Shown here: positions 9,182 through 62,293 of the stretch, piece after piece
Numbering within the stretch: the stretch's first letter is position 1
Layout of the letters: each line of letters starts with the position of its first letter
Source of the DNA: Nanoarchaeota archaeon SCGC AAA011-G17
GTDB lineage: Archaea; Nanobdellota; Nanobdellia; SCGC-AAA011-G17
Assembly (NCBI GenBank): GCA_000402515.1
Contig: AQRL01000035.1
Location: 36,006-100,005 of the forward strand
Reading direction: 5' to 3'
Length of the DNA stretch: 64,000 nucleotides
The notes under the pieces: model-generated
Told to the model about the DNA's origin: nothing
The model's database searches: none
What the model saw: the letters and a program-made list of their open reading frames with translations, nothing else
Translations under genes and position numbers: made by a program

Positions 9182-9182
9182 T

Positions 9183-9867: not shown

Positions 9868-9946
9868 TTACTTTTCCTCCAATCCTTTAGGATATAATTT
9901 TTGAGAATTTTGTTCTTTTTATAGTTTTGGATTTGAAAATAGATGC

Positions 9947-11277: not shown

Positions 11278-11287
11278 TTTTACTCTT

Positions 11288-20084: not shown

Positions 20085-20363
20085 TTGCATTTTAAGACCT
20101 TGATGAGCCTAATCTCTGATAATAAAAAAGAGAAGATAAGAATGGATATATTAAGATTTCTTTATGATGAATATCCTAAAATGCTTTATACCTATGAGGT
20201 TGCGGATGCACTTACAAGGAATGATGAGTTTATTTTGGGTTTATTAATAGAACTGAGAGATAAAAAAGCAGTACATTGGATTGAAGAGACTAAAGGAGGA
20301 AAGATTAAGAGGAAATGGGGAATGAATGAACTGATATTCAAAACCTATAAGGAATTACTTTAA
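20085..20363 (+). CDS. small winged-helix protein
   Basis: 92-aa ORF, '[40 protein letters not shown]'. Confidence 0.35.
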
Positions 20364-33374: not shown

Positions 33375-34691
33375 TTATATTTTTTCTAATATATTTTTGG
33401 TATACAGTCCTTTATCTGTTAATTCGTAGATTCCTCTCCTTATTTTTTGTACTGTCCCTTCATTTATTCTTTTTTTAACCCAGTTATAACATATTTTTTT
33501 AGGCATTAATTCTCTTATATGGTTTCCACAAAATATTGGATTGAGATTTTTGAAATGTTTTTGAGATTTATACCACCTATGATTTTTTAAATTCCATATT
33601 AGTTTTTGATGTTGTTTTTTGGAATCTTTTATTAAATCTGTTTCTATTAACTTTAATAATTTATCCCAGTTTAAGTAAATATTCAAAATGTATAGATTTT
33701 TATTTCCTTCTTTTCTGATTTTTCCATTTAATTCTAATTTTTCCAATAATCTTTTGTAATCTTCTATGTATTGTCTTTCTCTTTCAAAAAATCTAAGAAA
33801 GGAATGCAAACTTCCATGTTTGTCTTTAGCACAAGCAAAGTTTCCATCCCCATTGAATAGGCCCCTTAGAAATAATTTAGTTAATTTTTCACTTTCTTTA
33901 TCACAATTTTCTGATAAATAGTTTCTTGTTTTGTCCACCATATTAATAAATATATCTGTTAAGATACTACTACTTATCCATAATTTAATGCTGTAATTCC
34001 TAATTCTTTTAGCTTTGTTTATATAGAGATTTTCTTCTCTTATACCATATTTAATTAGTTTTTCTTTAACTTTTTCAATTCTATCTTTACTGAGTTTTTT
34101 ATTATAATAAATTGTTGTTTTTATTATTTTTATGTCTATAAGGTATTTTAACAGACCTATAAAATCTTTTATTATTTTTAACGAAGTATTAACAAAAGAA
34201 AATTCTCTTGCTCGTCTTTTAGCTAATTTGGGCTTTCCTCCTTCTGCTTGATAATATCCTAAACATTTTGCAAACTTGGAAGGCATATTTTTATTGATTA
34301 TTACTTCTTTAGAACCTCCATAATTCAGATACCAACATAATAATTTGTTTTTCTTTTCTAAAACTAAAATAGGATATCCTGATAATGTTTTTTCTGGAAT
34401 GAATGCTAAACTATTAAACTTGTTATTTTTGATTATCTCTTTTTCTCTTTTTATATTTTTTATTTCTTTTATATTAATTGTAATTATATCTTTAGGTTCT
34501 AAGTTTAGTTTCTTCCTTATATCCCTTGGTATGAAAAATCTTCTTTCTTTGTTAAGGTATTTTATAAATGAGAGTGATTTATTATTTTTTTGTATTTCTA
34601 CTTCAAAAAATTTATCTTTAAATTTATGATATTCTTCTTTGTGTAAATAGATTCTTCCATCTTTTAATATAGTCTCTTGTTCTGTTGACAT
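33375..34691 (-). CDS. Free-standing LAGLIDADG-family endonuclease-like protein with N-terminal AbrB-like and C-terminal wHTH regions
   Basis: 'CLGYYQAEGG' and 'FLRGLFNGDGNF' LAGLIDADG motifs. C-terminal 'IRRGIYELTDKGLY'. Confidence 0.45.
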   Translation of the reverse strand: MSTEQETILKDGRIYLHKEEYHKFKDKFFEVEIQKNNKSLSFIKYLNKERRFFIPRDIRKKLNLEPKDIITINIKEIKNIKREKEIIKNNKFNSLAFIPEKTLSGYPILVLEKKNKLLCWYLNYGGSKEVIINKNMPSKFAKCLGYYQAEGGKPKLAKRRAREFSFVNTSLKIIKDFIGLLKYLIDIKIIKTTIYYNKKLSKDRIEKVKEKLIKYGIREENLYINKAKRIRNYSIKLWISSSILTDIFINMVDKTRNYLSENCDKESEKLTKLFLRGLFNGDGNFACAKDKHGSLHSFLRFFERERQYIEDYKRLLEKLELNGKIRKEGNKNLYILNIYLNWDKLLKLIETDLIKDSKKQHQKLIWNLKNHRWYKSQKHFKNLNPIFCGNHIRELMPKKICYNWVKKRINEGTVQKIRRGIYELTDKGLYTKNILEKI

Positions 34692-47975: not shown

Positions 47976-48312
47976 TTCCTTTATCTTTTAAACTCTTATC
48001 AATTAGTAGTTTTACCTCTTTTTCTGTTGTAAAATGAAGGGGGTTCCACAGGTTAATATATCTTTCTAAAACTTTTAAGTCATCCTTTCTTGCAAAGGCC
48101 TCTACTTCTGTTATCATATGCCTAATTGTTTGTTTGACTTTTGTAAGGTCTGCTTTTATCCCTTTCATTTCATTATTGATATTTTTTAGTTGCAGGTTTA
48201 TACTTCTGTATTCTTCAATCATATTCTGGTCTGTTACAAATATTCTATCCCTAAGAATTACGACTTTATTTTCTATATCCCTTACTCTTCCAATTACATC
48301 CTCTTCAGGCAT
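47956..48312 (-). CDS. Coiled-coil protein
   Basis: 118-aa heptad-rich ORF overlapping the next gene. Confidence 0.3.
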   Translation of the reverse strand: MPEEDVIGRVRDIENKVVILRDRIFVTDQNMIEEYRSINLQLKNINNEMKGIKADLTKVKQTIRHMITEVEAFARKDDLKVLERYINLWNPLHFTTEKEVKLLIDKSLKDKGNAPANN

Positions 48313-48385
48313 TTTAAAGAATAATGTTTTCTTATATATTAATTTAATGGTTAGGTTTATATAATTCTGTTATAATTATTAATTT

Positions 48386-51300
48386 ATGGAAAAAGAGGAA
48401 ATAACTCCTGGCGGATATCAGATTATCAAACAAGGCAAAGAAGATGTTCTAAAAATAAATATGGAAAATGTGAGCTATCCTCCTTCTTTAGAAAATAGTT
48501 CCTTGTGTATGATGCAGACTATTTCCAAGCTTGCTCAGGTTCCAGGTGTTGGAAGGATTATTTTTTCTGACGGCAGAAATTATGAATATAACTATGAGCA
48601 GACACAAATACTTGTTGAGATTGCCGGAATTTATAACCATTTAATTAAACAAAAAAATACCTTAACCTTTGGGTTGGATGAAGGGGATAGCACAAGAAGA
48701 GAGATTATACAGAGCTTAATAATTAATTTATTGAGAAGTGACCCCATTGGATGTTATGTTGAATTAAAGAGGATTATCAGAGAAGAAAGAATAAGGGTGA
48801 GGGGGTTAACAAACGATACAGAGATAAGATTAACACAAATGTATGTTTCTTTATTGGATTATATTCTTGGGCTGCTTGACCGAACAAAGTTAGTACAAAG
48901 AGTCAGAGAGTCTTTAGACGGGCATATTGTTGGTGACAGGCTTGTGTATAAAAGAATTTTCAGCCCAATTATAACTCCTGACTTTATGTATACCAAATTA
49001 ATGTCCAGAATTCCTCTTAATGGCGAATTGGTGGATAGTTATAAAATTGACAGGGATACAGAGGTAAATATTTTTAGGATGCCGGGGCAAATAAAAAATC
49101 TGTATCATTTGAATCCTCCGGAATTTAAATTTGATGATGACAAGTTTGAGTTAATTCATTTAGCAAGAACTGTTTTAGCAGAGCATAAACCAAGAGAAGA
49201 GGAGTTTATTGATCCTGAAAGAATGAGAACTACTTTTTTTAATATCGGAAGGGATATGCTGCAGGAACTTGCAGACAGAAAGGGACTGAGGTTAAATTAT
49301 GCTGAGTTAAAGCAATTAACAAATGTTCTTGTCAGATATACTGTTGGATTTGGTTTGGTTGAAACTTTATTGAAAGATCAAAAAGTACAGGATATTACTA
49401 TAAATGGACCGATGGGCCAGACACCGATTTTTATAGTTCATGAGAATTTTGATGAGTGTGTTACCAATATTGTTCCATCTAGGGAGGATGCTTTAAGCTG
49501 GGCAACTAAATTCAGAATTTTAAGTGGCAGACCATTGGATGAGGCTAATCCTGTTTTGGATACTGAGCTTGTAATTCCAGAGGCAAGAGCAAGAGTTGCA
49601 ATTGTTTCTACTCCCTTAAGCCCATGGGGACTAGCTTATGCATTTAGAAGGCACAGAGACAAGCCGTGGACACTGCCTTTATTTGTTAATAACAAAATGA
49701 TTACACCTATGGCTGCAGGGCTATTGAGTTTTTTAATTGATGGTGCTAGGACATTAATTGTTGCTGGAACAAGAAGCTCGGGTAAGACTTCTTTATTGGG
49801 AGCAGGTTTGGTTGAAATTATGAGGAAATACAGAATATTAACTACTGAGGATACTTTAGAGCTGCCAACAGATGCACTTAGAAATCTTGGATATAATATA
49901 CAACCGATGAAAGTAAGAAGTGCTTTATCAAAAGGAGGAACAGAGGTTGCTGCTGATGAGGGAATCAGAACTGCATTAAGAATGGGAGATAGTGCATTAA
50001 TTGTAGGAGAAATTAGAAGTTCTATTAGAGGAAGTGAAAAAGTAGTTGTTGTAGATAATGGGGAAACAAAAAGAATTCCAATTGCAGACTTAGAAGGGAA
50101 AGATATAGAGAAAATGTATGTTCCTACTATAGATTTTGACTTACAGGTTAAATTGTCCAAGCTTAATGGGTTTGTTAAACATCCCAAAAGAAAAAAATTA
50201 TTAAAAGTCAAAACAAGAACTGGAAGAGAGGTTACTGTTACACCCGACCATAGTTTATTTACTTCTCATAATTTTAAAATATATCCAATAGAATGTAAGG
50301 ATTTGAAAGTTGGAAGTAAGATTGTTTTACCTTCTAAATTGCCTTGCGGGTATAATGATATAGGTCATTTAAATCTTTTAAATATTATTGGGGATGCTAG
50401 AGTTGAGAATTTTGAAGAACCGATTAGGCGGGTTATATCTAAAATAGGATGGAAGAAAGCCACTTCTCTTTGCAATATAAAATGTGGAGATATCTATAAT
50501 TATTATAGAGTAAATCAAAAGACCAATATCCCTATAAATTCTTTTAATAAATTAGTATCCCTTGCAGAAGAGAATAATAATCTAGAAAGTTTGTATATAA
50601 AGAATGGAACAAGTAATACTTTAAGTGCTTTATTCCCTATAAATGTAGATTTTTGTAGATTTTTAGGTTATTTTATTTCTGAAGGGTATTTCCATGATAC
50701 TTCTATTGTGATATCAAATGATAATGATAAAATAGTCTCAGATATTACTTCTTTATGTAAAACTCTCTTTAATCTTGAACCATATGTTAGAGAAACAAAA
50801 GGATTGGGGAGGTCTAAACAGATAGCGATCAGTAATTCTCCATTGGTAAAATTATTTGAAAAGATTGGATGCGGAAGAATTAGTAAAGAAAAAAGAATTC
50901 CTTCATTTATCTATGGTTTATCTGAATCTAAGATATACTCATTTTTAAGTGGATTATATGCTGGTGATGGAAGTTTCACATCATCAAAGTCTTCTGGTAA
51001 TTGTATTAGATATTTTACTATTTCAAAAGAACTTGCAGATGATTTGATGTATTTATTATTACATATAGGCATTGTTTCAAGAAAATTAATGAGGAAGAGC
51101 AATGGCTTATCAAACAATCCTATTTATATTGTTGAGTTTAAGGATAGGAATTTTGTAAGAAGATTTATAGATAATGTTGATTTTGTTAAATATAAACCAG
51201 TGATGACTGAAAAAAATGTTTCACACTCTCGTTTTAATAATGTAAGTTATGATATAAAAGAACTTGAGAACCATTTGAAATTAATTAGAAAATATAGGCA

Positions 51301-52150
51301 TTTGAGAAAATATAATTCATGCGGAAAAGAGTTTCTTAGAAAGATAGTTTTAGATAAAAATACTAATTCCGATTCTTCAATAAAAACATTTGTGAATGGT
51401 GAATTTTATTTAGACGAAGTCAAAGAAATAGAAGAAATAAATTTAGAGGAAGGAGAGTATGTTTATGATTTGTCTGTTGATCCAAGCCAGAATTTTATTG
51501 GGGGATTTGGAGGAATTTTATTACATAATACAGAAGCTTTAGCACTTTATGAGGCTATGAGAATTGGTGCATTGGCTAATGTTGTTGCCGGAACAATTCA
51601 TGGTGATAGTCCGTATGGTGTTTTTGACAGGGTTGTAAATGATTTGAAAGTTCCTAAGACTTCTTTCAAAGCCACAGATATAATTATTGTTGCTAATCCT
51701 ATAAAAAGTGCAGATGGATTACATAAATGGAGGAGGGTTACACAGATTACTGAGGTAAGAAAGAATTGGCAAGATGATCCATTAAGGGAGGGAGGATTTG
51801 TTGACTTAATGAAATATGACAGCAAAGAAGACAGATTAAAACCAACTGATGATCTGATTAATGGGAATAGCGAAATAATAAAAGGAATTGCTGCAAATGT
51901 AAAGGAGTGGGCTGGTGATTGGGATGCTGTTTGGAATAATATAGTATTAAGAGCAAAAATAAAAGAGGCTATAGTTAATTATTCAAGAGTTTTCAAAAAA
52001 CCAGAAATGTTAGAGGCTGAATTTGTTATCAAGGCTAATGATATGTTTCATATTACAAGCGGGAGTGTTCAGGAGAGAGAGGGGTGGCTGAATTCTGAAT
52101 TGATTTATACTGAATGGGAAGACTGGCTGAAAAAAGAAATTAATGGTTAG
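48386..52150 (+). CDS. Type IV pilus/archaellum-type assembly ATPase (GspE/VirB11/FlaI superfamily) containing a ~503-aa LAGLIDADG intein
   Basis: 'DITINGP', Walker A 'GTRSSGKTS', 'LIVGEIRS'|intein|'TEALALYEAMRIG', 'GTIHGDS'. About 470-aa N-terminal extension before Walker A. Confidence 0.8.
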   Translation: MEKEEITPGGYQIIKQGKEDVLKINMENVSYPPSLENSSLCMMQTISKLAQVPGVGRIIFSDGRNYEYNYEQTQILVEIAGIYNHLIKQKNTLTFGLDEGDSTRREIIQSLIINLLRSDPIGCYVELKRIIREERIRVRGLTNDTEIRLTQMYVSLLDYILGLLDRTKLVQRVRESLDGHIVGDRLVYKRIFSPIITPDFMYTKLMSRIPLNGELVDSYKIDRDTEVNIFRMPGQIKNLYHLNPPEFKFDDDKFELIHLARTVLAEHKPREEEFIDPERMRTTFFNIGRDMLQELADRKGLRLNYAELKQLTNVLVRYTVGFGLVETLLKDQKVQDITINGPMGQTPIFIVHENFDECVTNIVPSREDALSWATKFRILSGRPLDEANPVLDTELVIPEARARVAIVSTPLSPWGLAYAFRRHRDKPWTLPLFVNNKMITPMAAGLLSFLIDGARTLIVAGTRSSGKTSLLGAGLVEIMRKYRILTTEDTLELPTDALRNLGYNIQPMKVRSALSKGGTEVAADEGIRTALRMGDSALIVGEIRSSIRGSEKVVVVDNGETKRIPIADLEGKDIEKMYVPTIDFDLQVKLSKLNGFVKHPKRKKLLKVKTRTGREVTVTPDHSLFTSHNFKIYPIECKDLKVGSKIVLPSKLPCGYNDIGHLNLLNIIGDARVENFEEPIRRVISKIGWKKATSLCNIKCGDIYNYYRVNQKTNIPINSFNKLVSLAEENNNLESLYIKNGTSNTLSALFPINVDFCRFLGYFISEGYFHDTSIVISNDNDKIVSDITSLCKTLFNLEPYVRETKGLGRSKQIAISNSPLVKLFEKIGCGRISKEKRIPSFIYGLSESKIYSFLSGLYAGDGSFTSSKSSGNCIRYFTISKELADDLMYLLLHIGIVSRKLMRKSNGLSNNPIYIVEFKDRNFVRRFIDNVDFVKYKPVMTEKNVSHSRFNNVSYDIKELENHLKLIRKYRHLRKYNSCGKEFLRKIVLDKNTNSDSSIKTFVNGEFYLDEVKEIEEINLEEGEYVYDLSVDPSQNFIGGFGGILLHNTEALALYEAMRIGALANVVAGTIHGDSPYGVFDRVVNDLKVPKTSFKATDIIIVANPIKSADGLHKWRRVTQITEVRKNWQDDPLREGGFVDLMKYDSKEDRLKPTDDLINGNSEIIKGIAANVKEWAGDWDAVWNNIVLRAKIKEAIVNYSRVFKKPEMLEAEFVIKANDMFHITSGSVQEREGWLNSELIYTEWEDWLKKEING
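50021..51529 (+). other. Intein in pilus ATPase (Hint + LAGLIDADG endonuclease)
   Basis: Block A 'SIRGSEKVVVVDNGETKRIPIADL'. Block B 'VTPDHSLF'. LAGLIDADG 'FLGYFISEGY' and 'FLSGLYAGDGSF'. Blocks F/G 'YVYDLSVDPSQNFIGGFGGILLHN|T'. The N-terminal boundary is uncertain by about 4 codons. Confidence 0.75.
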
Positions 52151-52181
52151 ATTTATATAATTCTTTCTTGTAGTTTAAATA

Positions 52182-54335
52182 ATGAGTAAAAAAGAGGTAG
52201 AGGATATTCTAGAGAAATACAGGAAGAAACTAAAAGAAGAGGTTAGTCCAGATCTTAACCAGGGTGCATTTTCCAGAGAATATTCAAAATTTAAAACTGA
52301 GGTAATTGGGAAAGAACTTACATTATATGAAAAACTTTGTAATTTATCTGAGAGAATATTAAGAATAGGAACAAGTTCTGAAAAAAGACAAAAATTAGAG
52401 GAGAGCATTTATCATACTGAATTAAATATCAGCCCTGAAGGGGCTATGAGTTTTGCCACCTTATTTGGTTTTTTTCTTATTATTTTGTCCTTTGTAATTG
52501 GCGGGATATGGTATTTATTTAGTGGCTTAACTGCTGGAGTATCTTTTTCTGTTATACTAATAATTCTTATTGGACTAGTCAGTATGAGAGTTTTAGCTGA
52601 AGTTCCAAACAGAAAGGCAATGATGTGGAGGATAAAGGCCAGTGACCAGATGGTTTTGTGCATTCTGTATATTGTTATGTACATGAGACATACTTCTAAT
52701 CTAGAGCATGCTATTAAATTTGCAGCGCAGCATCTTGATGATCCATTATCTGCTGATTTGAAAAAAGTTTTCTGGAATTTGGAAACAGGGAAGGCCAAGA
52801 CGGTTAGTGAGAGCCTTGATATTTATTTAGAGGGATGGAGAAAATATAATATGGAATTTATCAATTCTGTCCATCTTATTGAGAGCTCATTATATGAGCC
52901 AACTGAGAAGAGAAGATTAGAGATTTTGGACAGAGCATTGGAGGTTATTTTAAACGGAACTTATGAAAGGATGATGAACTATGCGCATGATATAAAAAAT
53001 CCAATCACTACTTTGTATATGCTTGGTGTAATACTTCCGATACTGGCATTGATTATTCTTCCTCTGATGGGGGCATTTTTGGGAGTGAAGTGGTACTGGC
53101 TTGCATTCCTATATAATATATTACTTCCATTATTTGTTTATTTCAAGGGAAATGATATTTTGAATAAGAGACCGGGTGGAAGCAGTGAGAGTACTTTATT
53201 GCAGGGAAAGGATTATGAAGATTATAAGAGAATAGAATTTTTGGGAATACAGATGGATCCTTTAGTTCTTGGCTTGCCTATTTTATTTTTGGTTTTAATA
53301 GTTGGATTAAGCCCCTTGATATTACACTCTTTATTTCCTGCAAGCCTTTTCTTGAATGCTGAAGGTGTTTTTGGTTATTTTAGTGATAATGGGCTTTGTA
53401 CTGGAAAGAATTGTATGGGTCCTTATGGAATCTTGGCACTTTATCTGAGTTTGTTGATTCCTCTTAGCTGGACTTTGGGAATTGGATTGTATTACAGATT
53501 AAAGACGAGAAAATTAATAAAAATAAAGGATGATACTACAAGATTAGAAAAAGAATTTTCAAGCAGTTTATTCCAATTAGGAAACAGAATTGGAGATGGA
53601 TTACCGGCTGAGATTGCAGTTGAGAAAGTGGCTGAGAATATGAGGGGAACTGCAACTGGTGATTTCTTCAGGATGATTGCAATCAATATCAGAAATTTAG
53701 GGATGGATCTGAATGAGGCTATTTTTAATAAATCAAGAGGGGGAATTATTTACTATCCTTCAAATGTTATCCAGAGCTCGATGAGAGTACTTGTTCAGAG
53801 TGTTCAGAAAGGCCCTGCAATAGCTGCCAGTGCAATGATCAGCATTTCTAATTATTTGGATAATATAAATAAAATAAATGAGAGACTTAAAGATTTATTG
53901 TCTGATATTACCAGCAGTATGAAGGGGCAGATAAATTTTCTAACTCCTCTTATTGCCGGAATTGTTATTGGTATTGGGGCTATGATAACAAGCATTATTG
54001 TCAAGCTTGGTCCATTATTAGCAATGACTGGGGGAGATAAGGTTGAGGGATTTGGTGTTGACCTGAGCATTATTGCAGACATCTTTCCGCTTGACAAGGT
54101 AATTCCCCCATATTTCTTCCAGTTGGTTGTTGGGATTTATATTTTACAACTTGTTATTATTTTAACTAAACTAAAAAGTGGGATTGAATTTGGTGTTGAC
54201 AGATTAAGAGAGGAGAATGAAATGGGTGGAAATTTATTTAAGGGAGTGGGGCTTTATGTTATTGTATGCATAGTTGTTGTATTCATATTAACTATGCTAT
54301 CGGAAGGAGTAATGTTAACAACAGGTGGACTATGA
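52182..54335 (+). CDS. Polytopic membrane platform protein (FlaJ/TadC/GspF-like)
   Basis: 717 aa. Two blocks of TM helices separated by cytoplasmic domains. Immediately downstream of the ATPase. Confidence 0.6.
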   Translation: MSKKEVEDILEKYRKKLKEEVSPDLNQGAFSREYSKFKTEVIGKELTLYEKLCNLSERILRIGTSSEKRQKLEESIYHTELNISPEGAMSFATLFGFFLIILSFVIGGIWYLFSGLTAGVSFSVILIILIGLVSMRVLAEVPNRKAMMWRIKASDQMVLCILYIVMYMRHTSNLEHAIKFAAQHLDDPLSADLKKVFWNLETGKAKTVSESLDIYLEGWRKYNMEFINSVHLIESSLYEPTEKRRLEILDRALEVILNGTYERMMNYAHDIKNPITTLYMLGVILPILALIILPLMGAFLGVKWYWLAFLYNILLPLFVYFKGNDILNKRPGGSSESTLLQGKDYEDYKRIEFLGIQMDPLVLGLPILFLVLIVGLSPLILHSLFPASLFLNAEGVFGYFSDNGLCTGKNCMGPYGILALYLSLLIPLSWTLGIGLYYRLKTRKLIKIKDDTTRLEKEFSSSLFQLGNRIGDGLPAEIAVEKVAENMRGTATGDFFRMIAINIRNLGMDLNEAIFNKSRGGIIYYPSNVIQSSMRVLVQSVQKGPAIAASAMISISNYLDNINKINERLKDLLSDITSSMKGQINFLTPLIAGIVIGIGAMITSIIVKLGPLLAMTGGDKVEGFGVDLSIIADIFPLDKVIPPYFFQLVVGIYILQLVIILTKLKSGIEFGVDRLREENEMGGNLFKGVGLYVIVCIVVVFILTMLSEGVMLTTGGL

Positions 54336-54439
54336 ACAAAAAAGGTATTGCTGATAAAACTATGATTGTAATTGGTATTTTAATACTCGCTGTTATTTTG
54401 ATTTTAATCTTGAGGGGGATTATTAACAATGTATTCTAA
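54332..54439 (+). CDS. 35-aa prepilin-like micro-protein (class III signal peptide + TM only)
   Basis: 'MNKKGIADKTMIVIGILILAVILILILRG'. ATG overlaps the TGA of the previous gene (ATGA). Confidence 0.4.
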   Translation: MNKKGIADKTMIVIGILILAVILILILRGIINNVF

Positions 54440-55187
54440 AAAAGGAATCGCTAAGCTTACAGTTTTTCTTATTGTTGGTTTACTAGGAGCGATTGCTCTT
54501 TTTTCTGTTTGGGGAGGTATTTTTCCAGCTTCTAGAGATATTGTTATGCATAAGGTGTGCACTTGGAGTATAAACTTTAAAGACAAGCTCATTATAGGAA
54601 CTAATTTGTGTTATACTGATGACAAGGAAGTAAGTGAAAAAGATAAGGAAGCTGTAATGAAAGATATTGCAGACAAGATGGTTGAATGCTGGAAGAGAAT
54701 GGATGAGGGAAGAACTCCAATTGATACAAATTGGTTTGTTGGGGGATATAAATGCTTTAAGTGTTATAGAATAAAAATTACAGGACTAAAAGATAAAATT
54801 AGTTATGAAGATTTTTTTAAATTTTTAACTGAAAATCCTATTAAGGGAAAGGAAGAAAGCTATAATACTTTCTTTAAGAAATATGATGAGGATAATGCGA
54901 TTGTTCTTCTTGGAAAAAGTGGCACTATTAAAGAGGCGTTTATTGATCCAAAACAATATGAATATTATACTGTGGCTTTTAAGGGCTATACTCCTGCTGG
55001 GAAGGGAAGTGTTGCTGCTACAGCATATAGCTCTGTAAAATTAGCCCCATTTACTGGAGGATGGTCTCTTCTAGCAGGTGCCACAGCCCTGACTACTGGA
55101 GGTGTTCGTTACTGGATTAGTGAAAACTCAATAATTGTTGCATCTTATGATAAATTGGAGGAAGAGTGTTCATCAACTTTAAGATGA
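54429..55187 (+). CDS. Prepilin-like protein (class III signal peptide)
   Basis: 'MYSKKG|IAKLTVFLIVGLLGAIALFSVW' followed by a 220-aa domain. Confidence 0.55.
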   Translation: MYSKKGIAKLTVFLIVGLLGAIALFSVWGGIFPASRDIVMHKVCTWSINFKDKLIIGTNLCYTDDKEVSEKDKEAVMKDIADKMVECWKRMDEGRTPIDTNWFVGGYKCFKCYRIKITGLKDKISYEDFFKFLTENPIKGKEESYNTFFKKYDEDNAIVLLGKSGTIKEAFIDPKQYEYYTVAFKGYTPAGKGSVAATAYSSVKLAPFTGGWSLLAGATALTTGGVRYWISENSIIVASYDKLEEECSSTLR

Positions 55188-55327
55188 AAAAGGGACAGAC
55201 AGTTATGGATACAACAAGAGAGTTAATTTGGGTATTATTAATACTGCTCGCTTTGGTTTTTTTTGTTTATTTTTTGAAGGATAAAATAACTCATTTCTTT
55301 GAGGTGATGTTTGATGCTCTCAAATAG
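55184..55327 (+). CDS. 47-aa prepilin-like micro-protein
   Basis: 'MKKGQTVMDTTRELIWVLLILLALVFFVYFL'. ATGA overlap with the upstream gene. Confidence 0.4.
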   Translation: MKKGQTVMDTTRELIWVLLILLALVFFVYFLKDKITHFFEVMFDALK

Positions 55328-55985
55328 GAAGGGGAATGAAGGAATGTGGTGGACAATTGCTGGTGCAGGGATTGCACTCATTATTTTAATTATCTTAATT
55401 TTTGCTTTTCTTTCTGAAGGAGGTATTTGGGGAAAAACAAAAGTAGCTATTACTAAATTTTTTGAAAAGGGTGAAGAGGGGATTAAGCTATATAAGGAAT
55501 ATTTTGGAGATAATCCCAGCAAACAGGTAATAAAGGCAGGGCTAATAAAAGATTTTATTATAACTAATCTTAGCCGGATTGAGAATAAGGACTGCATAGG
55601 TTATCTTGATTTGTCTGGCATAAATGAAGATATTGATGGCTATTCTGTTTATTTTAAGAAAACAGATGAGGGAACTGATTTTTATGTGTATAGTGGGGGG
55701 AAGAAAGATTATGGTGAGATATTAAAAGACCATCTTGCTTATGGTCATGTCAGTACTAATCTATTTGGGTATAATCCTGTCTTTAAAGAAGAATATAGTG
55801 AATTTTGGCTTCTTAATGGGATGACAAGTATCATTTTTCCAGTTGGTGTAAGCTATCCACTTTTATATTCCTCTTCAAAAGCTAATAATCCTTATTACTT
55901 AAATTACAAAGACAAGAGATTGCGTTTTGTTGTATTACCTGATGAACTTTCCAAAATAAATAATCCAAGTATAAATAAATGTTAG
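55314..55985 (+). CDS. Prepilin-like protein
   Basis: 'MLSNRKGNEGMWWTIAGAGIALIILIILIFAFL'. Confidence 0.5.
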   Translation: MLSNRKGNEGMWWTIAGAGIALIILIILIFAFLSEGGIWGKTKVAITKFFEKGEEGIKLYKEYFGDNPSKQVIKAGLIKDFIITNLSRIENKDCIGYLDLSGINEDIDGYSVYFKKTDEGTDFYVYSGGKKDYGEILKDHLAYGHVSTNLFGYNPVFKEEYSEFWLLNGMTSIIFPVGVSYPLLYSSSKANNPYYLNYKDKRLRFVVLPDELSKINNPSINKC

Positions 55986-56044
55986 ACGAAACATTTAAAT
56001 AGAAAATAAAAGAATTTATATATAAGTATATATTGAGAGGTGTT

Positions 56045-56497
56045 ATGAAAATGAATAAAAGAGGTCAAGGTGGACTTTCTATGGATACTATTATTATAGC
56101 TGTAATTGCTATAATTGTTTTGTTATTGATTGTTACTTTCTTTACAGGCGGAATGGCTAATGTTTTCGGCAAGATAAGGAATGTATTCTCGACTGGGACA
56201 GCAGGAACAGATATTGATCTTGCAAAGAAAAGCTGTGAAAGTTATTGTGAAAGAGCACAGGGATTAGCAACAGAAGGTGAAAGAAAGGTATCAACTTATT
56301 GCACTTATGAATTTAAAATAGATACAGATAGTAGTGGGAAAGTTGATAAGGCTGATGGGGATGGATGTACTAAAAATAGAAGAGATAGTAATGGTAATTC
56401 TGTAACTGCAAAATCTGATTGTTCTGTTGGGGTTGTTTATTGTGATAAATCTCCAATTGTAATCAGTTGTCCAGGAGTAACTTGTGCTACAGTTTAG
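56045..56497 (+). CDS. Cys-rich prepilin-like protein (candidate major pilin)
   Basis: 'MKMNKRGQGGLSMDTIIIAVIAIIVLLLIVTFF', then a 110-aa domain with 12 Cys. Confidence 0.55.
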   Translation: MKMNKRGQGGLSMDTIIIAVIAIIVLLLIVTFFTGGMANVFGKIRNVFSTGTAGTDIDLAKKSCESYCERAQGLATEGERKVSTYCTYEFKIDTDSSGKVDKADGDGCTKNRRDSNGNSVTAKSDCSVGVVYCDKSPIVISCPGVTCATV

Positions 56498-56520
56498 TAA
56501 TTTTTTTTCTTTTTATTAAA

Positions 56521-56748
56521 ATGAACAAAAAAGGGGATTTGAACTGGGAAGTAATTGTTACTGGTATTATAGTTGTAATTGTTTTGGTTGTTCTTGTAAT
56601 ATTTTTCAGACAGCAGATAATGGATGTTGCTAAGGGTTTTAAAAGTATTGTTGAAGGGGGAACAGCTGGTGTTGATGAGATAGATGTCAATAAAATGGCT
56701 GGAGAGGGAAGCAAGACATTTAGCAGAAATTTTATATATACCTCCTGA
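56521..56748 (+). CDS. Prepilin-like protein (75 aa)
   Basis: 'MNKKGDLNWEVIVTGIIVVIVLVVLVIFF'. Confidence 0.5.
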   Translation: MNKKGDLNWEVIVTGIIVVIVLVVLVIFFRQQIMDVAKGFKSIVEGGTAGVDEIDVNKMAGEGSKTFSRNFIYTS

Positions 56749-56760
56749 TTAGCTATTGTT

Positions 56761-57321
56761 ATGTTAAATAAAAAAGGGGATGAAACAGTATGGCAATATA
56801 CCATTGGCTTATTTATTATGTTTTTTGTTCTTTTTGGTTTGACCAGCTGTGGTTATAAAATACTCAATCCTAATTGCGATCCTGCTTCTGTTGAGGCTTT
56901 TAATGAATTTGTTAAATATTATGAAGAATGTACCGGCAAGAATGGAGACTGTGGGAAGTTTAATTATTCCAAGTTGGACAAGCTGGATAATATAGTTGTT
57001 GAGCCAACAGGCAATAAATTAGAGAGTACAAGCATTAATCTGAGATGCAATGGAAAAACTTCATTCAGAAACAGCAGAAAAATTGATGTTAAATTATGCT
57101 TTAAATACGGAGAAAATGTCAGATTAGCAAATAGCGGTGATTCTGTGAATATTTATCCTGATGAAGGGAATGATCTTGAATATTTTTTAAATAATAATTT
57201 GAACTTATACAACATAAATCAGGATAATGTTTGTTTTGTTATGATTGGGAAAACTATGGAAGAATATACTAAGGAAGAAGCAAGAAAACAATTTATGGAT
57301 AAAGATTATATGTCTAAGTAA
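56761..57321 (+). CDS. Prepilin-like protein with Cys-containing domain
   Basis: 'MLNKKGDETVWQYTIGLFIMFFVLFGL'. Confidence 0.5.
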   Translation: MLNKKGDETVWQYTIGLFIMFFVLFGLTSCGYKILNPNCDPASVEAFNEFVKYYEECTGKNGDCGKFNYSKLDKLDNIVVEPTGNKLESTSINLRCNGKTSFRNSRKIDVKLCFKYGENVRLANSGDSVNIYPDEGNDLEYFLNNNLNLYNINQDNVCFVMIGKTMEEYTKEEARKQFMDKDYMSK

Positions 57322-57326
57322 GTGGA

Positions 57327-57713
57327 TTGATTAAAATGAATAAAAAAGGCCAGGATTTACCGACTGTAACAACTGTTGAACTTTTTATTTTATTATTAAT
57401 ATTTGGAATGCTTGCTTATGTAACTTTTAATGCAAATATCAGCAATGATGTCAATAATATAAGGGCAAAGGATTTGGGATTGGCAATAAGCCTAATCAGC
57501 TCTTTTGACAAGAATGTTAAATTCAGCTATAATCTTGAGGATGAAAAAAAAATTAATTTTATAGATAATAATGTTGAAATTTCCAATAAAGACGGAAGCC
57601 ATTTTGAGAAAAGCAAATTTAATCTTAATAAAAAAAATACATTTAACGGGAAAGACGGCAATTATCAATCATTAAGCATAAAAAAATCAGGAGATAGTGT
57701 TGAGGCAAAATGA
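57327..57713 (+). CDS. Prepilin-like protein
   Basis: 'MIKMNKKGQDLPTVTTVELFILLLIFGML'. Confidence 0.5.
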   Translation: MIKMNKKGQDLPTVTTVELFILLLIFGMLAYVTFNANISNDVNNIRAKDLGLAISLISSFDKNVKFSYNLEDEKKINFIDNNVEISNKDGSHFEKSKFNLNKKNTFNGKDGNYQSLSIKKSGDSVEAK

Positions 57714-58117
57714 ATAAAAAAGGCGGGGGAGAGATATTATCAGGAAAAACAGGGTATTATATTGTTTATATTTTTATTTTTGCAATAAGCATTGCTATTG
57801 CTGCAGCTTATATTAATAATAAAGTTACAGTGAATGTTGATTTTTCTGTACTGGAAAGGGATGTTGTCAGCAGCATGGTTTTTGACTGTTTGAAGGGCAG
57901 TGAATTTGGAATTATTGATTATAACAAATTCAAGAGTGAAAATCTGAAAGAGTGCTTTGATGAAAATACATATTATGTCAAGGTCAAATTGAGAGAGAGC
58001 GGAGAGATAAGGAATTTTGATTTCAGCAGTGATAATCGTGTTGAATATTATGTTCTTGTTGACAAGGGAGAATTACAAAGAGATTTTTTATCTCTGGAGT
58101 TTGAAAATGTTGCCTGA
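57710..58117 (+). CDS. Prepilin-like protein
   Basis: 'MNKKGGGEILSGKTGYYIVYIFIFAISIAIAAAY'. ATGA overlap. Confidence 0.5.
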   Translation: MNKKGGGEILSGKTGYYIVYIFIFAISIAIAAAYINNKVTVNVDFSVLERDVVSSMVFDCLKGSEFGIIDYNKFKSENLKECFDENTYYVKVKLRESGEIRNFDFSSDNRVEYYVLVDKGELQRDFLSLEFENVA

Positions 58118-58586
58118 TGATGTTAGTGATTTGATTATTGCAATGATTCTTCTAGTCTTGCTTGCTTCTGTTGTCTGGGCTTTGCAGAGCCCCATTGGAA
58201 AAACCCTTGCTGGTGAGGGATTAAACAGAGAGGCTAAAATAACTGCAGATATCCACAATTACAATTTTGAGGAGAATATATTTTTAGTTAATTATCTAAG
58301 GACACCAATTGCCAAACTTACAGTGGCTGATTATATTTTGATGTGCGATAATGAAGAGAAATTTGGGAATTTAAAAAAAGAGACAGACAAGATTTTGAGA
58401 GAGTATGGTAAGAAAATAAATATTATTGTCAGCTGCAAGGATGAGAAAAAGATTGTTGCTGGATATTTGATTGATGAAAGTGAAAGCAGGACTGGCTTAT
58501 TTTTTAATGGTGAGAAGGGGGTTGAGATTAATTTCAGCCCAGAATTCAAACAAAATTATTATTATGGATTACCCTATGTACACTAA
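58107..58586 (+). CDS. Pilin-like/membrane-anchored protein
   Basis: 'MLPDDVSDLIIAMILLVLLASVVWAL'. It overlaps the stop of the previous gene. Confidence 0.4.
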   Translation: MLPDDVSDLIIAMILLVLLASVVWALQSPIGKTLAGEGLNREAKITADIHNYNFEENIFLVNYLRTPIAKLTVADYILMCDNEEKFGNLKKETDKILREYGKKINIIVSCKDEKKIVAGYLIDESESRTGLFFNGEKGVEINFSPEFKQNYYYGLPYVH

Positions 58587-58587
58587 A

Positions 58588-59562
58588 ATGAACAAGAAGG
58601 GAATGGTATTTGCAACATTCACAGTAATGATTGTATTCCTCTTTATCATAAGCAACATTATCTACAAGATGCATACAGAGAATAAGAGCAAACTAAAAGA
58701 TGTCGGCTTGGGAACTGTAGACTTGATTAGGCAGAGAAGTGATTTTGAATTTGACAATCTGATTAGTGAGAAAGAGGTTGAGCTTAAAGTAAATAATGCA
58801 CTTGTAAAATTTGCTAATGGCGAGGGGAAGAATTATCTTAATGATAACAAATTTAATGAGATGTTTTTTCAGTATCTGAAGAAAGACAGCAATTTCATAT
58901 ATGATTATGATTTTAATTTAATTGGAAATATAATTGAATTCAGTGTTAAAGAAACAGCTGCAGGAGAGATGATTAAAAAAACAAGCATTGGAAAGACTGA
59001 GGAGTGCAAAAAAAAAGTGGTTGAATTGGCTGAAAAGCAGCTTGGTTGCAAATATGTATTGGGTGCGAAGGGACCGTGCGGGAGTGCATTTGACTGTTCC
59101 GGACTTATTAAGTGGGTTTATATTAATGCAGGTGTTGGTGTAAATTATTTCCCAGATGGAAGCTGGATACAGGCTGATTGGGGAAGGAGAAGCAATCTTG
59201 AGGTCAGCAATGATATTGGAAAAGATGCTAAATTAGAGGTTGATAAATTAGAGCCAGGAGATATTGTTTTTTTTAAGGGTAGCCTGCCTACTGATGGTTA
59301 TGGGGCTGAAGAACTGGATATAAGGCATGTTGGAATTTATATTGGTGATGGAAAGATTATTGAAGCAGCTGGAAAGGATTCTGGGGTTATTGAGTCTGAT
59401 ATCAGCAATAAAAGGAATTATAGGGGGGCTATAAGGGTCTGCTCTGAAAACTTTGTGGAAAATGAAGGTGTTTTTAGCTTGGATTCTAAATACGAATATA
59501 AAATTGAGCTGAATAAGAGGGATTTTATCACTCCAGACGGCATTAAGAGCATTAATATTTGA
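58588..59562 (+). CDS. Prepilin-like N-terminus fused to NlpC/P60 cysteine peptidase (cell-wall hydrolase) domain
   Basis: 'MNKKGMVFATFTVMIVFLFIISNIIY'. C-terminal 'GAKGPCGSAFDCSGLIKWVY' (catalytic Cys), 'PGDIVFFKG', 'RHVGIYIGDGKIIEA' (catalytic His). Confidence 0.65.
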   Translation: MNKKGMVFATFTVMIVFLFIISNIIYKMHTENKSKLKDVGLGTVDLIRQRSDFEFDNLISEKEVELKVNNALVKFANGEGKNYLNDNKFNEMFFQYLKKDSNFIYDYDFNLIGNIIEFSVKETAAGEMIKKTSIGKTEECKKKVVELAEKQLGCKYVLGAKGPCGSAFDCSGLIKWVYINAGVGVNYFPDGSWIQADWGRRSNLEVSNDIGKDAKLEVDKLEPGDIVFFKGSLPTDGYGAEELDIRHVGIYIGDGKIIEAAGKDSGVIESDISNKRNYRGAIRVCSENFVENEGVFSLDSKYEYKIELNKRDFITPDGIKSINI

Positions 59563-59619
59563 AATAACTAATTAAGTATAATCAACTATATAAACTAACT
59601 AAGATTTTTTGTTTCTAAT

Positions 59620-60624
59620 ATGATTAAAATAAGCTATGATGATATAATCAGAAAAATAAAAGAGGAAAAAAAGATAAGTGATGAAGAGATTAATTCTAAA
59701 ATAGAAAAGAAGATTGAGCAATTAGCCGGCCTTATTTCCAGAGAAGGGGCTGCACATATTGTAGCACATGAATATGGGGTTAAGGTCTTTAAAGAGGGGG
59801 CTATGAAGATCAGTGAGATTCTAAGCGGGATGAGAGAGGTTGAAATAAACGCCAAGGTTCTTACTGTCTTTGGAGTTGTCAGCTTCAAAAAAGAAAGCAG
59901 AGAGGGAAAGGTTGCAAGCTTTTTAGTCGGAGATGACAGCGGTAAAATAAGAATTGTTTTGTGGGATAATTCACATATTTCTTTTATTGAAAACGGGCAG
60001 ATAAGAGAAGGCAGTGTAATCAAAATTAAGAATGCATATGTCAAGGATAACCAAAATGGGCTTAAAGAATTACATTTAGGAGAGAAATCTGAGTTAATCT
60101 TAAATCCTGATAATGTTGAAATCAAAGAAATCAGCTCGGTAAATAATGCTGTATTTTCCAATTTAACTGTAAAAAAAATAAATGAATTAACTGAAAATGA
60201 CAGGAGTGTTGCTATCAGAGGGGCTGTTGTGCAGGTTTTTGAGCCAAGGTTTTATGAAATGTGCAGCGAATGCAACAGGAAGGTTGTTTTAGAGGATGGA
60301 CAGCATAAATGCAGTGTACATGGAGCTGTTAATCTCAGATATGGAATTGTCAGCAACTTTGTTTTGGATGACAGCACTAATACTATAAGAATTGTTGCTT
60401 TCAGGGAGGCTGCTGAGAAATTTTTTCATTTAAATAATGATGAGTTAATGGCAATAAGAACAAATCCTGGGAAATTTGAGGAGATAAAAGAGAATTTATT
60501 CGGAAGACTGGTTGAAGTGAAAGGGAGAGTTATTAAGAATATTATTTTTGACAGACTGGAGTTCAATGCAAATAATATTGAAGATTTAAAAGCGGAAGTT
60601 CTTTTGAAAGAATTAGAGAGATAG
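59620..60624 (+). CDS. rpa: Replication protein A-like ssDNA-binding protein (OB folds + zinc ribbon)
   Basis: Two OB-fold-like segments ('VNAKVLTVFGVVSFKK..GKVASFLVGDDSGKIRIVLWD'; 'RGAVVQVFEP'). 'CSECNRKV...CSVHG' Zn ribbon. Confidence 0.55.
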   Translation: MIKISYDDIIRKIKEEKKISDEEINSKIEKKIEQLAGLISREGAAHIVAHEYGVKVFKEGAMKISEILSGMREVEINAKVLTVFGVVSFKKESREGKVASFLVGDDSGKIRIVLWDNSHISFIENGQIREGSVIKIKNAYVKDNQNGLKELHLGEKSELILNPDNVEIKEISSVNNAVFSNLTVKKINELTENDRSVAIRGAVVQVFEPRFYEMCSECNRKVVLEDGQHKCSVHGAVNLRYGIVSNFVLDDSTNTIRIVAFREAAEKFFHLNNDELMAIRTNPGKFEEIKENLFGRLVEVKGRVIKNIIFDRLEFNANNIEDLKAEVLLKELER

Positions 60625-60698
60625 ATATTTAATTATTATTGAACATCACATTTGTAAAAGATAATAAAAAGGTTTTTATATAATATTTATTATTAAAT

Positions 60699-61235
60699 TT
60701 GAATATGAGAGATAAAATAAGACAATTTCTAAAAAACAAGAAACAACCTATTTTGTTATTGAAGCATAAGGGCAATACCAATCCTCTTTATGAATGGAGT
60801 AAGATTAGAAATCCCCTAAGAACAGCCTTTAATGCGTTTATTATAAATATTTGTAAAATTTTACCCTTAGGAATGAAAGTTTCTTTTTTAAGATTTTTTT
60901 TGGGAATTAAAATTGGAAAAAATGTAGGAATTGCTCCTAGCACAGAAATCGACCCATATTATCCCGAATTAATCTCAATAGGTGATAATGTGACTATAGG
61001 ATGGAAAGTTAATATACTTTGTCATGAGTTTACACAAGCCCGCATTAGGTTTGGTAGGGTAAATATTGGAAAAAATGTTTTAATTGGTGCATTTAGTTTA
61101 ATACGTTCGGGAGTTAGTATTGGGGATAATTCTGTTATAGCAATGGATAGCTTTGTAAATAAAGATATACCTCCGAGTGAGTTGTGGGGGGGAGTTCCAG
61201 CTAGAAGAATTAGAAAATTAAAAGAGGCCATATAA
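60699..61235 (+). CDS. Hexapeptide-repeat (LbH) acetyltransferase
   Basis: Repeated [LIV]G.N..I hexapeptides ('IGDNVTIGWKVNI', 'IGKNVLIGAFSLI', 'IGDNSVIAMDSFV') and C-terminal 'GVPARRIRKL'. Confidence 0.6.
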   Translation: MNMRDKIRQFLKNKKQPILLLKHKGNTNPLYEWSKIRNPLRTAFNAFIINICKILPLGMKVSFLRFFLGIKIGKNVGIAPSTEIDPYYPELISIGDNVTIGWKVNILCHEFTQARIRFGRVNIGKNVLIGAFSLIRSGVSIGDNSVIAMDSFVNKDIPPSELWGGVPARRIRKLKEAI

Positions 61236-61271
61236 CCAAAAACATTTAAACCAATAAGTATTTCTTGTTTT

Positions 61272-61829
61272 ATGAAAAAAGAGCTGAATATATTACTTCT
61301 TGTCAGCGCCTTCTTTATGCTTGCCGGGGGATTATTCGGGCCAATCTATGCTATCTTTGTTGAGAAGATTGGCGGGGATTTGATTACAGCAGGAACTGCT
61401 TACAGCATTTATTATATATTTGCAGGCATTCTGATATATATTGTTTCTAAATTTGAAGACAAGATGAAGAATCAGGAATTTTTAATTGTAATTGGCTATT
61501 TTATCAACTGCATTGGTTATCTTGGTTATCTGTATATTTCAGAGCCATTGCATCTTTATATTGTCCAGATAATATTCGGCATTGGGGCTGCAATCAATGT
61601 ACCGGCCTTTAAAGGAGTTTTCAGCCATAATCTTGACAGAGGGAAATTTGATTCTGAGTGGGGATTGTGGGATGGAATGTCTTATTTCTTCTGGGGGATA
61701 AGCGCTTTTGTTGGCGGCTATGTTGCTAAGATTTATGGATTTGAAATATTATTTTTCATAATGCTTTGTCTGTCTGCTATTGGCTTGATAATATCTACTA
61801 GGTTATTTTTTATAAAGAAAAGAAAATGA
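61272..61829 (+). CDS. integral membrane protein
   Basis: 5-6 TM helices. Confidence 0.3.
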   Translation: MKKELNILLLVSAFFMLAGGLFGPIYAIFVEKIGGDLITAGTAYSIYYIFAGILIYIVSKFEDKMKNQEFLIVIGYFINCIGYLGYLYISEPLHLYIVQIIFGIGAAINVPAFKGVFSHNLDRGKFDSEWGLWDGMSYFFWGISAFVGGYVAKIYGFEILFFIMLCLSAIGLIISTRLFFIKKRK

Positions 61830-62293
61830 TGTTCAGAACGCATCTGGCTTTTGCACTTCTTGTTGGTTTGCTTACAATGAATTTATTTGATTTTAATAAG
61901 TATTTATTTATTAGTTTGGTTTTATTTTCCGGGATAGTTCCTGATATTGATTATCCAAGATCAAAGATAGGGAAGAAGCTGAGAACAATAAGCATTCCTA
62001 TCAAGTTTCTTTTTGGGCACAGGGGATTATTTCACAGCGTGTTTATGGCTGGAATTATTTCTTTAGTTATATGGTGGTTTTTTGACAGATTATGGATTCC
62101 TGTTTTTATCGGCTATTGCTCACACTTGATTATTGACGGCTTTACAAAGTTAGGTGTTAATTTTATCCATCCATTTAGTCAATTACATTTATCCGGATTT
62201 ATAGAAACAAACGGGTTTATTGAGAAATTATTATTTTATATCTTAGTTGGATGTAATGTTTTAATCATAATAAAGAATATAAACCTGTTTTAA
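61826..62293 (+). CDS. Membrane-bound metal-dependent hydrolase (DUF457/YdjM-like)
   Basis: 'THLAFALLVG...PDIDYP...HRGLFHS...HLIIDGFT' His/Asp pattern. Confidence 0.45.
   Translation: MMFRTHLAFALLVGLLTMNLFDFNKYLFISLVLFSGIVPDIDYPRSKIGKKLRTISIPIKFLFGHRGLFHSVFMAGIISLVIWWFFDRLWIPVFIGYCSHLIIDGFTKLGVNFIHPFSQLHLSGFIETNGFIEKLLFYILVGCNVLIIIKNINLF

Follow-up and report, generated by a model that had tools for sequence, protein, structure and literature searches.

Type IV pilins in which a pilin-type N-terminus displays a functional module have been surveyed in bacteria. PilB-vWA and PilC-lectin of S. sanguinis, CofB and GspK are examples, and the dataset of the survey holds 264 architectures (PMC8179133). 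The bulky, low-copy subunits among these proteins are thought to be located at the filament tip. The subject here is a gene found in a 64,000 bp stretch (hereafter the window) of contig AQRL01000035.1 from Nanoarchaeota archaeon SCGC AAA011-G17, which is the last gene of a putative type IV filament operon and encodes a pilin-like carrier with a nested NlpC/P60 hydrolase. On balance, it is considered probable that this carrier, encoded by the pilus operon, presents a murein endopeptidase to bacterial cell walls. The arrangement shares with the bacterial modular pilins the display of a module by a pilin-type N-terminus, but the protein is archaeal, has a K-G leader and carries no bacterial N-methylation motif (IPR012902). 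Its predicted cargo also differs in being a murein-cutting enzyme, and one that is exchangeable or absent between close lineages. No architecture with an NlpC/P60 or a lytic transglycosylase (SLT) domain was found in the accessible part of the bacterial dataset.

A close archaeal precedent is provided by the bindosome proteins of Sulfolobus, in which an archaeal prepilin-type signal is present on a large extracellular protein that depends on type IV filament machinery (PMC4371748; bioRxiv 10.64898/2026.04.22.720090). However, the Sulfolobus binding proteins are encoded beside ATP-binding cassette (ABC) transporters, whereas the hydrolase examined here is nested in a pilin-sized scaffold encoded by the last gene of a filament operon. 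The study of archaeal type IV filament systems and of binding proteins with class III signals includes no mention of 'NlpC', 'hydrolase' or 'peptidoglycan' (bioRxiv 10.64898/2026.04.22.720090).

Murein hydrolases of the bacterial type are also known in archaea that make no murein, including DPANN archaea; they are prominent in Nanoarchaeota and have been read as anti-bacterial tools. Huge SLT proteins have been reported in Pacearchaeota and Woesearchaeota (PMC8204110) and GH23 in Woesearchaeota (PMC9723730), and an attack on the walls of bacteria is already suspected for these lineages (PMC8204110, PMC9723730). A survey of archaeal peptidoglycan hydrolases, with experimental proof in a haloarchaeon, includes the zoocin-like Woldo, as well as LysM+SLT proteins in Woesearchaeales and LysM+NLPC_P60 proteins in Aenigmatarchaeota (PMC12352652). 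The known archaeal enzymes are Sec/Tat-secreted, huge and multidomain, or equipped with LysM, SH3 or PG_binding domains, whereas targeting of the protein described here would come from its pilin-like carrier and its operon. Inclusion in the survey depended on a recognised wall-binding domain, and Sec/Tat signals were the only ones that it reported. As no recognised wall-binding domain is present in the protein, the survey would miss this class. The terms 'pili' and 'pilin' are absent from all three papers, and full-text literature searches for NlpC in DPANN and for pilin together with lytic transglycosylase in archaea and Nanoarchaeota returned nothing. DPANN peptidoglycan hydrolases and bacterial modular pilins are both already known; their combination was found described nowhere.

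The NlpC/P60 domain

A first-pass annotation made from the sequence had assigned an NlpC/P60 peptidase signature to the protein, citing the motifs FDCSGLIKWVY, PGDIVFF and RHVGIYIGDG. All three are present, and the assignment was borne out by a Pfam hidden Markov model (HMM) search, in which NLPC_P60 (PF00877, MEROPS C40) matched residues 154-275 (nt 59047-59412) with E=5.2e-14 and 52.6 bits, against a curated cut-off of 23. Partial NCBIfam matches were to RipC, Listeria p60, EntFM, MepS, RipA and RipB, all of which are murein endopeptidases, and weak Pfam matches to LRAT and C92 were also detected. When compared with the PDB, the family profile matched C. difficile Acd24020, Trichomonas NlpC1/2, Tn916-type hydrolases, the diffocin hub-hydrolase and Spr/MepS.

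FDCSGLIKWVY includes Cys170 (codon 59095-59097), PGDIVFF corresponds to residues 223-229, and RHVGIYIGDG includes His247 (codon 59326-59328). Cys170 and His247 are aligned with the Cys and His of autolysin Acd24020 (7cfl). The third triad residue, Glu259 (in IEAAG; codon 59362-59364), is aligned with a further His of Acd24020 and lies at His+12, the same spacing as between His432 and Glu444 of RipA (residue numbers taken from PDB entry titles). All three triad residues are invariant in nine homologs sharing 54-90% identity. Also invariant in the family are Cys140, Cys154, Cys164 and Cys285 (codons 59005-59007, 59047-59049, 59077-59079 and 59440-59442, respectively), and Cys140 and Cys285, which are found at the two ends of the inserted module (see below), could form a disulfide that staples the insertion.

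A structure was predicted with AlphaFold2 (AF2) using 35 sequences (mean predicted local distance difference test score, pLDDT, 71), an earlier run with nine sequences having been poor (mean pLDDT 54, hydrolase unfolded). Most of the hydrolase domain is modelled at pLDDT 77-95 and adopts a papain-like alpha+beta fold, as expected for NlpC/P60. Judged from sequence and this model, the protein includes a true NlpC/P60 domain of the P60/Spr-like murein endopeptidase class with an intact triad.

Unlike described NlpC/P60 DL-endopeptidases, such as Acd24020, B. subtilis LytE and CwlO, E. coli MepS and M. tuberculosis RipA, the domain is nested in an unrelated carrier and includes an extra conserved loop, FPDGSWIQADWGRR, in addition to the four further invariant cysteines. 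The laterally acquired NlpC1/2 of Trichomonas vaginalis are similar in that a murein hydrolase is present in an organism without murein. A papain-like wall hydrolase on a device that contacts its target is likewise seen in the diffocin hub-hydrolase CD1368, phage tail-tip lysins and the type VI secretion system (T6SS) effectors Tae/Tse1, which are structural neighbours of the protein. However, these are contractile or tail machines, whereas the locus described here is that of a type IV filament, and no sheath or tube genes are located near the operon.

The family alignment was run against one genome for each GTDB species and recovered only bacterial NlpC/P60 domains, among them domains from Gemmatimonadales (~39% identity over residues 141-288) and Actinomycetes, and no full-length relative. 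The protein had no exact match in a collection of 15 billion proteins.

Nesting of the hydrolase in the carrier

The hydrolase had been described as the C-terminal ~150 amino acids (aa) of the protein. This placement was revised, as the hydrolase is a 163-residue insertion nested in a carrier of ~160 aa and not a C-terminal fusion, with the final 37 residues forming part of the carrier. In two insert-free orthologs, P0183 (160 aa) and P0185 (143 aa), residue ~124 is joined straight to the conserved C-terminal tail (...G.F...KY.YKI.L.K..F.T..G.K.I) with no hydrolase between them, and G294, F296, Y304, I306 and G318 are kept both with and without the insert. Both orthologs are complete open reading frames (ORFs) and occupy the slot between a gene of the family starting with MLPED and an RPA-like gene. 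In a neighbour-joining tree of carrier sequences, P0183 fell within the clade that bears the hydrolase, as the sister of the window protein, and the lack of an insert in P0183 would therefore be due to secondary loss.

The AF2 model agrees with this nesting, in that a confident beta-hairpin (107-120) precedes the insert and three confident strands (301-305, 312-315 and 318-321) follow it. The remaining carrier elements are a long helix (3-77) and short helices (79-104). Values of pLDDT were 86-95 for residues 61-120 and 84-90 for the C-terminal strands (301-321), and these strands may pair with the hairpin to form one sheet.

An exhaustive profile search with residues 1-148 recovered only 6 relatives among 1.84e9 representative proteins. 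The G+C content of the insert is 0.41 compared with 0.31 for the carrier, but third-position values are alike (0.32 and 0.37, respectively), and base composition gave no sign of a recent transfer of the insert.

The N-terminal signal

The ORF extends from an ATG at 58588 to a TGA at 59560-59562, with 1 nt between the stop codon of the preceding gene and the ATG. An alternative in-frame ATG at 58576 would give MYTKMNKKG, and the leader is thus 5 or 9 aa long. MNKKG is followed directly by 21 hydrophobic residues, MVFATFTVMIVFLFIISNIIY, and then by the charged stretch KMHTENKSK. All homologs have MNK(K/R)G, with M1, N2, K3 and G5 invariant in the nine homologs, and this signal is conserved although identity over the N-terminal 148 residues drops to only ~50% in more distant family members.

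Archaeal prepilin peptidases require G, A or S at position -1 and a charged residue at -2, and cut immediately before the hydrophobic domain; Methanococcus Epd pilins, for instance, are cleaved at KG↓Q (PMC4371748). The protein follows this rule for archaeal class III signals, with K at -2, G at -1 (K-G↓M) and a hydrophobic domain of ~20 residues directly after. Three neighbouring array proteins have (K/R)G↓Q sites, as in the Epd pilins.

The first-pass annotation had also pointed out that the MNKKG and hydrophobic helix are common to this protein and the genes upstream, and the same was seen in a six-frame scan of the 64 kb window for M-x(0-3)-[KR][KR]-G followed by a hydrophobic stretch. The scan returned 10 ORFs and one longer reading of the same gene, all of them on the + strand within 54332-59562. 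The KKG leader shared by the protein and the array is therefore not a chance occurrence. Furthermore, comparison of the family with that of the 125-aa neighbour using hhalign gave a probability of 81% (E=1.2e-5) over residues 1-47, including a common KD(V/L)GL motif after the helix, which indicates homology between the first 47 residues and the N-terminus of this small array protein.

An ordinary Sec signal, with a cut by signal peptidase I and release of a soluble hydrolase, has the slightest chance of all the explanations considered here. About a third of the archaeal peptidoglycan hydrolases surveyed have Sec or Tat signals (PMC12352652). However, Gly5 and the KK motif are invariant and common to the nine neighbours, and by inspection no small-x-small (AXA-type) site follows the hydrophobic stretch. 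Sec-type cleavage, the finding that was to speak against a pilin-like N-terminus, is therefore unlikely, since the stretch of 21 residues has transmembrane length and continues into KMHTENKSK without such a site.

Orthologs with a lytic transglycosylase domain

Four further proteins have the same type of N-terminus and a different enzyme. P0186 (414 aa), P0188 and P0189 start with MNKKG and a hydrophobic helix, and P0190 starts with MIKIKKG and such a helix. Each carries an SLT lytic transglycosylase domain (Pfam E=6e-9 and 6e-16), in which the motifs ES...GLMQ...AYNGWG are invariant. Their first 80 residues matched the carrier with an hhalign probability of 97% (E=1.1e-10), and P0186 (locus L088) and P0189 (L091/L092) are encoded at the last position of the same operon. 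On this evidence two unrelated murein-cleaving modules, one predicted to cut peptide stems and the other glycan strands, are found at one slot. The most economical reading is that the scaffold is a filament-associated delivery module directed at bacteria, with an exchangeable wall-lytic cargo, which may be NlpC/P60, SLT, or none.

Because unrelated NlpC/P60 and SLT modules share one scaffold position, bacterial murein is the favoured substrate. SLT enzymes are not known to act on a glycan without N-acetylmuramic acid (MurNAc), and pseudomurein lacks MurNAc. Pseudomurein, the wall polymer of methanogens, was therefore set aside as the target. As regards the earlier proposal that the enzyme could breach the wall of a host or partner cell, the SLT swap argues for a wall of bacterial murein and against one of pseudomurein.

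More generally, a substrate other than murein in which gamma-glutamyl or isopeptide bonds would be cut, whether the pseudomurein of a methanogen host, poly-gamma-glutamate, S-layer proteins, or the pilins themselves through maturation or cross-linking, is improbable. The NlpC/P60 superfamily does include poly-gamma-glutamate hydrolases, amidases and acyltransferases, and the weak LRAT and C92 matches are in keeping with such a role; moreover, the known hosts of DPANN are archaea (PMC11291902). However, the best matches of the domain are all murein DL-endopeptidases, and the SLT domains in the positional orthologs would have no use for a glycan of the pseudomurein type.

The filament operon

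Features of the gene and of the operon are listed in Table 1. The position of the gene at the end of the array, as had been noted earlier, is conserved across related contigs. The stop codon is followed by an oligo-T run, an A/T-rich TATA-like stretch and then, at 59620, the gene for an RPA-like single-strand-binding protein, and this layout indicates that the gene is the last of its co-directional cluster. A scan for bacterial-type promoters and terminators was uninformative (55 found, 55.6 expected).

Table 1. Positions in the window of the hydrolase gene, its parts and the genes of the filament operon.
Feature	Positions	Strand	Basis
Gene for pilin-like carrier with nested NlpC/P60 hydrolase (324 aa)	58588..59562	+	
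Class III-type signal: leader MNKKG (residues 1-5) and hydrophobic domain MVFATFTVMIVFLFIISNIIY (residues 6-26)	58588..58665	+	invariant residues, array motif
Carrier, N-terminal part (residues 1-124)	58588..58959	+	AF2 model, alignments
Inserted module (residues 125-287): linker and NlpC/P60 domain	58960..59448	+	boundaries from insert-free orthologs P0183 and P0185
Carrier, C-terminal part (residues 288-324)	59449..59559	+	conserved with and without insert
Type IV filament assembly ATPase (T2SSE/FlaI/TadA-like), interrupted by intein with LAGLIDADG endonuclease	48386..52150	+	Pfam T2SSE, Intein_splicing, LAGLIDADG_3; NCBIfam FlaI, TadA partial
Polytopic membrane protein (717 aa), presumed platform protein	52182..54335	+	next gene after ATPase at all related loci
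Array of nine small genes, M-x(0-3)-[KR][KR]-G leader and hydrophobic helix	54332..58117	+	six-frame motif scan
Array gene 1	54332..54439	+	motif scan
Array gene 2	54429..55187	+	motif scan
Array gene 3	55184..55327	+	motif scan
Array gene 4	55314..55985	+	motif scan
Array gene 5	56045..56497	+	motif scan
Array gene 6, 75-aa candidate major pilin, MNKKG↓DLNWEVIVTG...	56521..56748	+	motif scan; weak Flp1_like match
Array gene 7	56761..57321	+	motif scan
Array gene 8	57336..57713	+	motif scan
Array gene 9	57710..58117	+	motif scan
Membrane-anchored protein (~159 aa), MLPED(I/V)xDL start and hydrophobic helix	58107..58586	+	alignment of four orthologs

The order of the operon is kept in loci L001, L084 and L085-L087, where the hydrolase protein is 54-58% identical. 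It consists of an ATPase of 750 aa, a membrane protein of ~700 aa, about ten small genes, the hydrolase and the RPA-like gene, then usually a gene for a major facilitator superfamily (MFS) protein, and that for YdjM. The same order is found in a more distant Nanoarchaeota assembly (L091/L092; GCA_018831025.1), and both the operon and the last place of the hydrolase gene in it are thus conserved across contigs whose proteins share only 30-58% identity. The intein in the window ATPase lies at about residues 549-1050, and the L085 and L091 orthologs (750-751 aa) have no intein match. The window copy of the presumed platform protein had no Pfam match, while its L091 ortholog (697 aa) matched T2SSF weakly (E=0.0015).

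Orthologs of the array genes were identified in L085, L001, L084 and L091. The 75-aa protein has Glu at +5 after the presumed cut and a Pfam match to Flp1_like (E=5.9e-4) that is below the curated cut-off; its L091 ortholog (62 aa) matched the same model with E=7e-6, and weak Flp1_like matches were also obtained for L085-L087. This protein is probably the major pilin and would belong to the short Flp/EpdE-like pilins, which lack a globular head. The gene always found directly upstream of the hydrolase gene encodes the MLPED-start protein, which has an acidic N-terminus and, unlike other array members, no KKG leader. Orthologs of 153-161 aa are encoded in L085 (9540-10004), L001 (2538-2999), L084 (1177-1662) and L088 (374-835), and also in L089. 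The MLPED-start protein might be an oppositely oriented anchor, or a subunit that needs no leader removal.

In L001 and L091/L092, the operon is followed ~7 kb further downstream by a Peptidase_A24 gene (L091 17516-18394, E=2.4e-12), which is preceded by a gene of the HIT family. In L001 (11048-13150), the A24 gene adjoins that for a 396-aa protein with a KKG leader (MGKNKKGGEST...), and this type of leader is thus also used outside the operon.

Location in an assembly operon could also mean that the enzyme remodels the envelope of its own producer, as do VirB1, FlgJ and the NlpC/P60 hydrolases of Gram-positive conjugation systems. Hydrolases are common within bacterial secretion, pilus and flagellum clusters, and the structural neighbours of the protein include hydrolases of Tn916-like conjugative elements. 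However, no conjugation genes (VirB4/VirD4-type) are present in the operon, and the protein was not placed with the VirB1 or CwlT/Orf14 types. Orthologous loci with an empty carrier further show that the enzyme is dispensable for the machine. Passage of the filament through the envelope of the producer, one of the roles originally suggested for the enzyme, is therefore unlikely, since murein synthesis is not known in these archaea and carriers devoid of cargo are maintained; the swap of cargo also argues against it. Most archaeal peptidoglycan hydrolases have likewise been concluded not to act on the wall of the producer (PMC12352652). Overall, remodelling of the producer's envelope is very unlikely.

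Proposed role of the carrier

The protein is proposed to serve an archaeal type IV filament as a minor-pilin-like subunit, with the NlpC/P60 endopeptidase inserted in a surface loop of the carrier. The MNKKG leader and the 21-residue helix would route the protein through the membrane with the N-terminus inside and the C-terminus outside, an A24 prepilin peptidase would cut the leader after Gly5, and the hydrophobic helix would retain the protein in the membrane until the ATPase and the platform protein of the operon load it into the filament. Its probable place is that of a low-copy subunit at the filament tip, because the protein is bulky and has no acidic residue at +5, and by analogy with GspK, PilB and CofB (PMC8179133). 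Where the filament meets another cell, the exposed Cys170-His247-Glu259 enzyme would cleave stem peptides of bacterial peptidoglycan. From the features described above, we infer leader cleavage, entry into the filament, the tip position, a bacterial target, and a purpose in the attachment to, feeding on or killing of bacteria.

The carrier resembles a pilin in the order of its predicted elements, from a long N-terminal helix through a helical loop to beta-strands, but several observations weigh against its being a filament subunit. In Pfam and NCBIfam searches, none of the known pilin models (PF04021, Flp1_like, N_methyl) matched the protein or the carrier alignment at E up to 10, and no pilin was among the best structural matches from the PDB. 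The predicted N-terminal helix (residues 3-77) is longer than the usual alpha-1 of pilins, and residues 31-50 are modelled at pLDDT <50. Most neighbours have 4-11 polar residues between KKG and the hydrophobic stretch, unlike textbook class III signals, and the window ORFs that were scanned included no A24 peptidase. As regards the exchange of cargo, the insert-free orthologs are on contigs of only 0.9-1.0 kb, and the demonstrable homology of the SLT proteins to the carrier is limited to the N-terminal 80 residues, so that nesting is shown for the NlpC/P60 form only. Finally, murein would be accessible to an enzyme at a pilus tip only where the bacterium has no outer membrane.

Other searches with the carrier were equally without a pilin relative. 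Carrier-only profiles had no significant match to PDB sequences or Pfam, the best being a ferredoxin reductase (E=0.08) and, in 2/8 members, a gp6-like helical domain (E=0.005). Comparisons of the carrier with the families of the 135-aa and MLPED-start neighbours using hhalign were not significant, and in the array itself no pilin HMM matched apart from the weak Flp1_like match of the 75-aa protein.

The main rival to presentation on a pilus is surface display of the kind seen in the bindosome, in which the class III-type N-terminus would serve only as an anchor, in the membrane or in a very short pseudopilus, for the hydrolase. The protein would then be a surface enzyme that is never on an extended pilus, and would cleave murein or muropeptides of adjacent bacteria or debris for scavenging or antagonism. 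This is the alternative to be taken most seriously, though it is rather unlikely. Archaea are already known to place class III signals on large non-pilin cargo, for example on Sulfolobus sugar-binding proteins, and many more such cases are predicted (PMC4371748; bioRxiv 10.64898/2026.04.22.720090). The lack of detectable pilin homology in the carrier is in keeping with an anchor, and the sequence evidence for an active, extracytoplasmic hydrolase would fit either explanation equally well. However, bindosome subunits are encoded beside transporters and not in filament operons (bioRxiv 10.64898/2026.04.22.720090), whereas the hydrolase gene keeps its place at the end of the operon in different lineages. 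Moreover, the carrier is pilin-sized, its N-terminus is homologous to that of a neighbouring small array protein, and it is kept in the absence of cargo, which is better suited to a structural subunit of a filament than to a mere anchor.

Host genome and remainder of the window

The window includes the archaeal markers Cdc6/Orc1, LonB, Hef and both PolD subunits, which identify the host genome as archaeal. Its SerRS is 65-70% identical to proteins labelled Nanoarchaeota, Ca. Pacearchaeota, Ca. Woesearchaeota and Ca. Nanoarchaeia, and the closest relatives of the genome are in the Nanoarchaeota and Pace-/Woesearchaeota. The G+C content of the window is 31.6%, and no tRNA or Rfam matches were found in it.

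The window is rich in inteins and homing endonucleases, which are located at 26357-31330 (+), 21753-22730 and 20355-21710 (both -), 53-1192 (-) and 33375-34691 (-). The PolD DP2 subunit carries an intein, LonB is represented by two ORFs (an AAA part ending in an intein start, then the lid and Lon_C part), and two LAGLIDADG ORFs are free-standing. A cluster resembling a mobile element at 7187-11319 (-) encodes a DUF559/MTES_1575 endonuclease-like protein, a tyrosine integrase and a serine recombinase, and ORFs without family matches extend up to ~17.5 kb. GC skew is strongly positive (0.28-0.39) at 24000-32000 and 48000-62000, where there are long runs of genes on the + strand (PolD and the pilus operon, respectively), and near zero or negative elsewhere.

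Implications

Surveys of the 'modular pilin' principle have so far been confined to bacteria (PMC8179133), and this locus would extend the principle to archaea and to an enzymatic cargo that is wall-lytic. The locus also represents specific genomic evidence for contact-dependent action on bacterial walls, and names the proteins that would be involved. This bears on the partners of Pacearchaeota and Woesearchaeota, two of the DPANN lineages that are most abundant in groundwater and sediments. To our knowledge, all DPANN cultivated so far attach to archaea. A bolder proposal, which is offered tentatively, is that the pilus tip of DPANN of the Pace-/Woesearchaeota type is a cassette scaffold with interchangeable murein-cutting modules, drilling the walls of monoderm bacteria (for example candidate phyla radiation (CPR) bacteria, Actinobacteria or Firmicutes) that serve as hosts or prey. 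If true, it would make this the first archaeal pilus armed with an enzyme, and would provide a direct molecular marker of physical contact with bacteria rather than with archaea.

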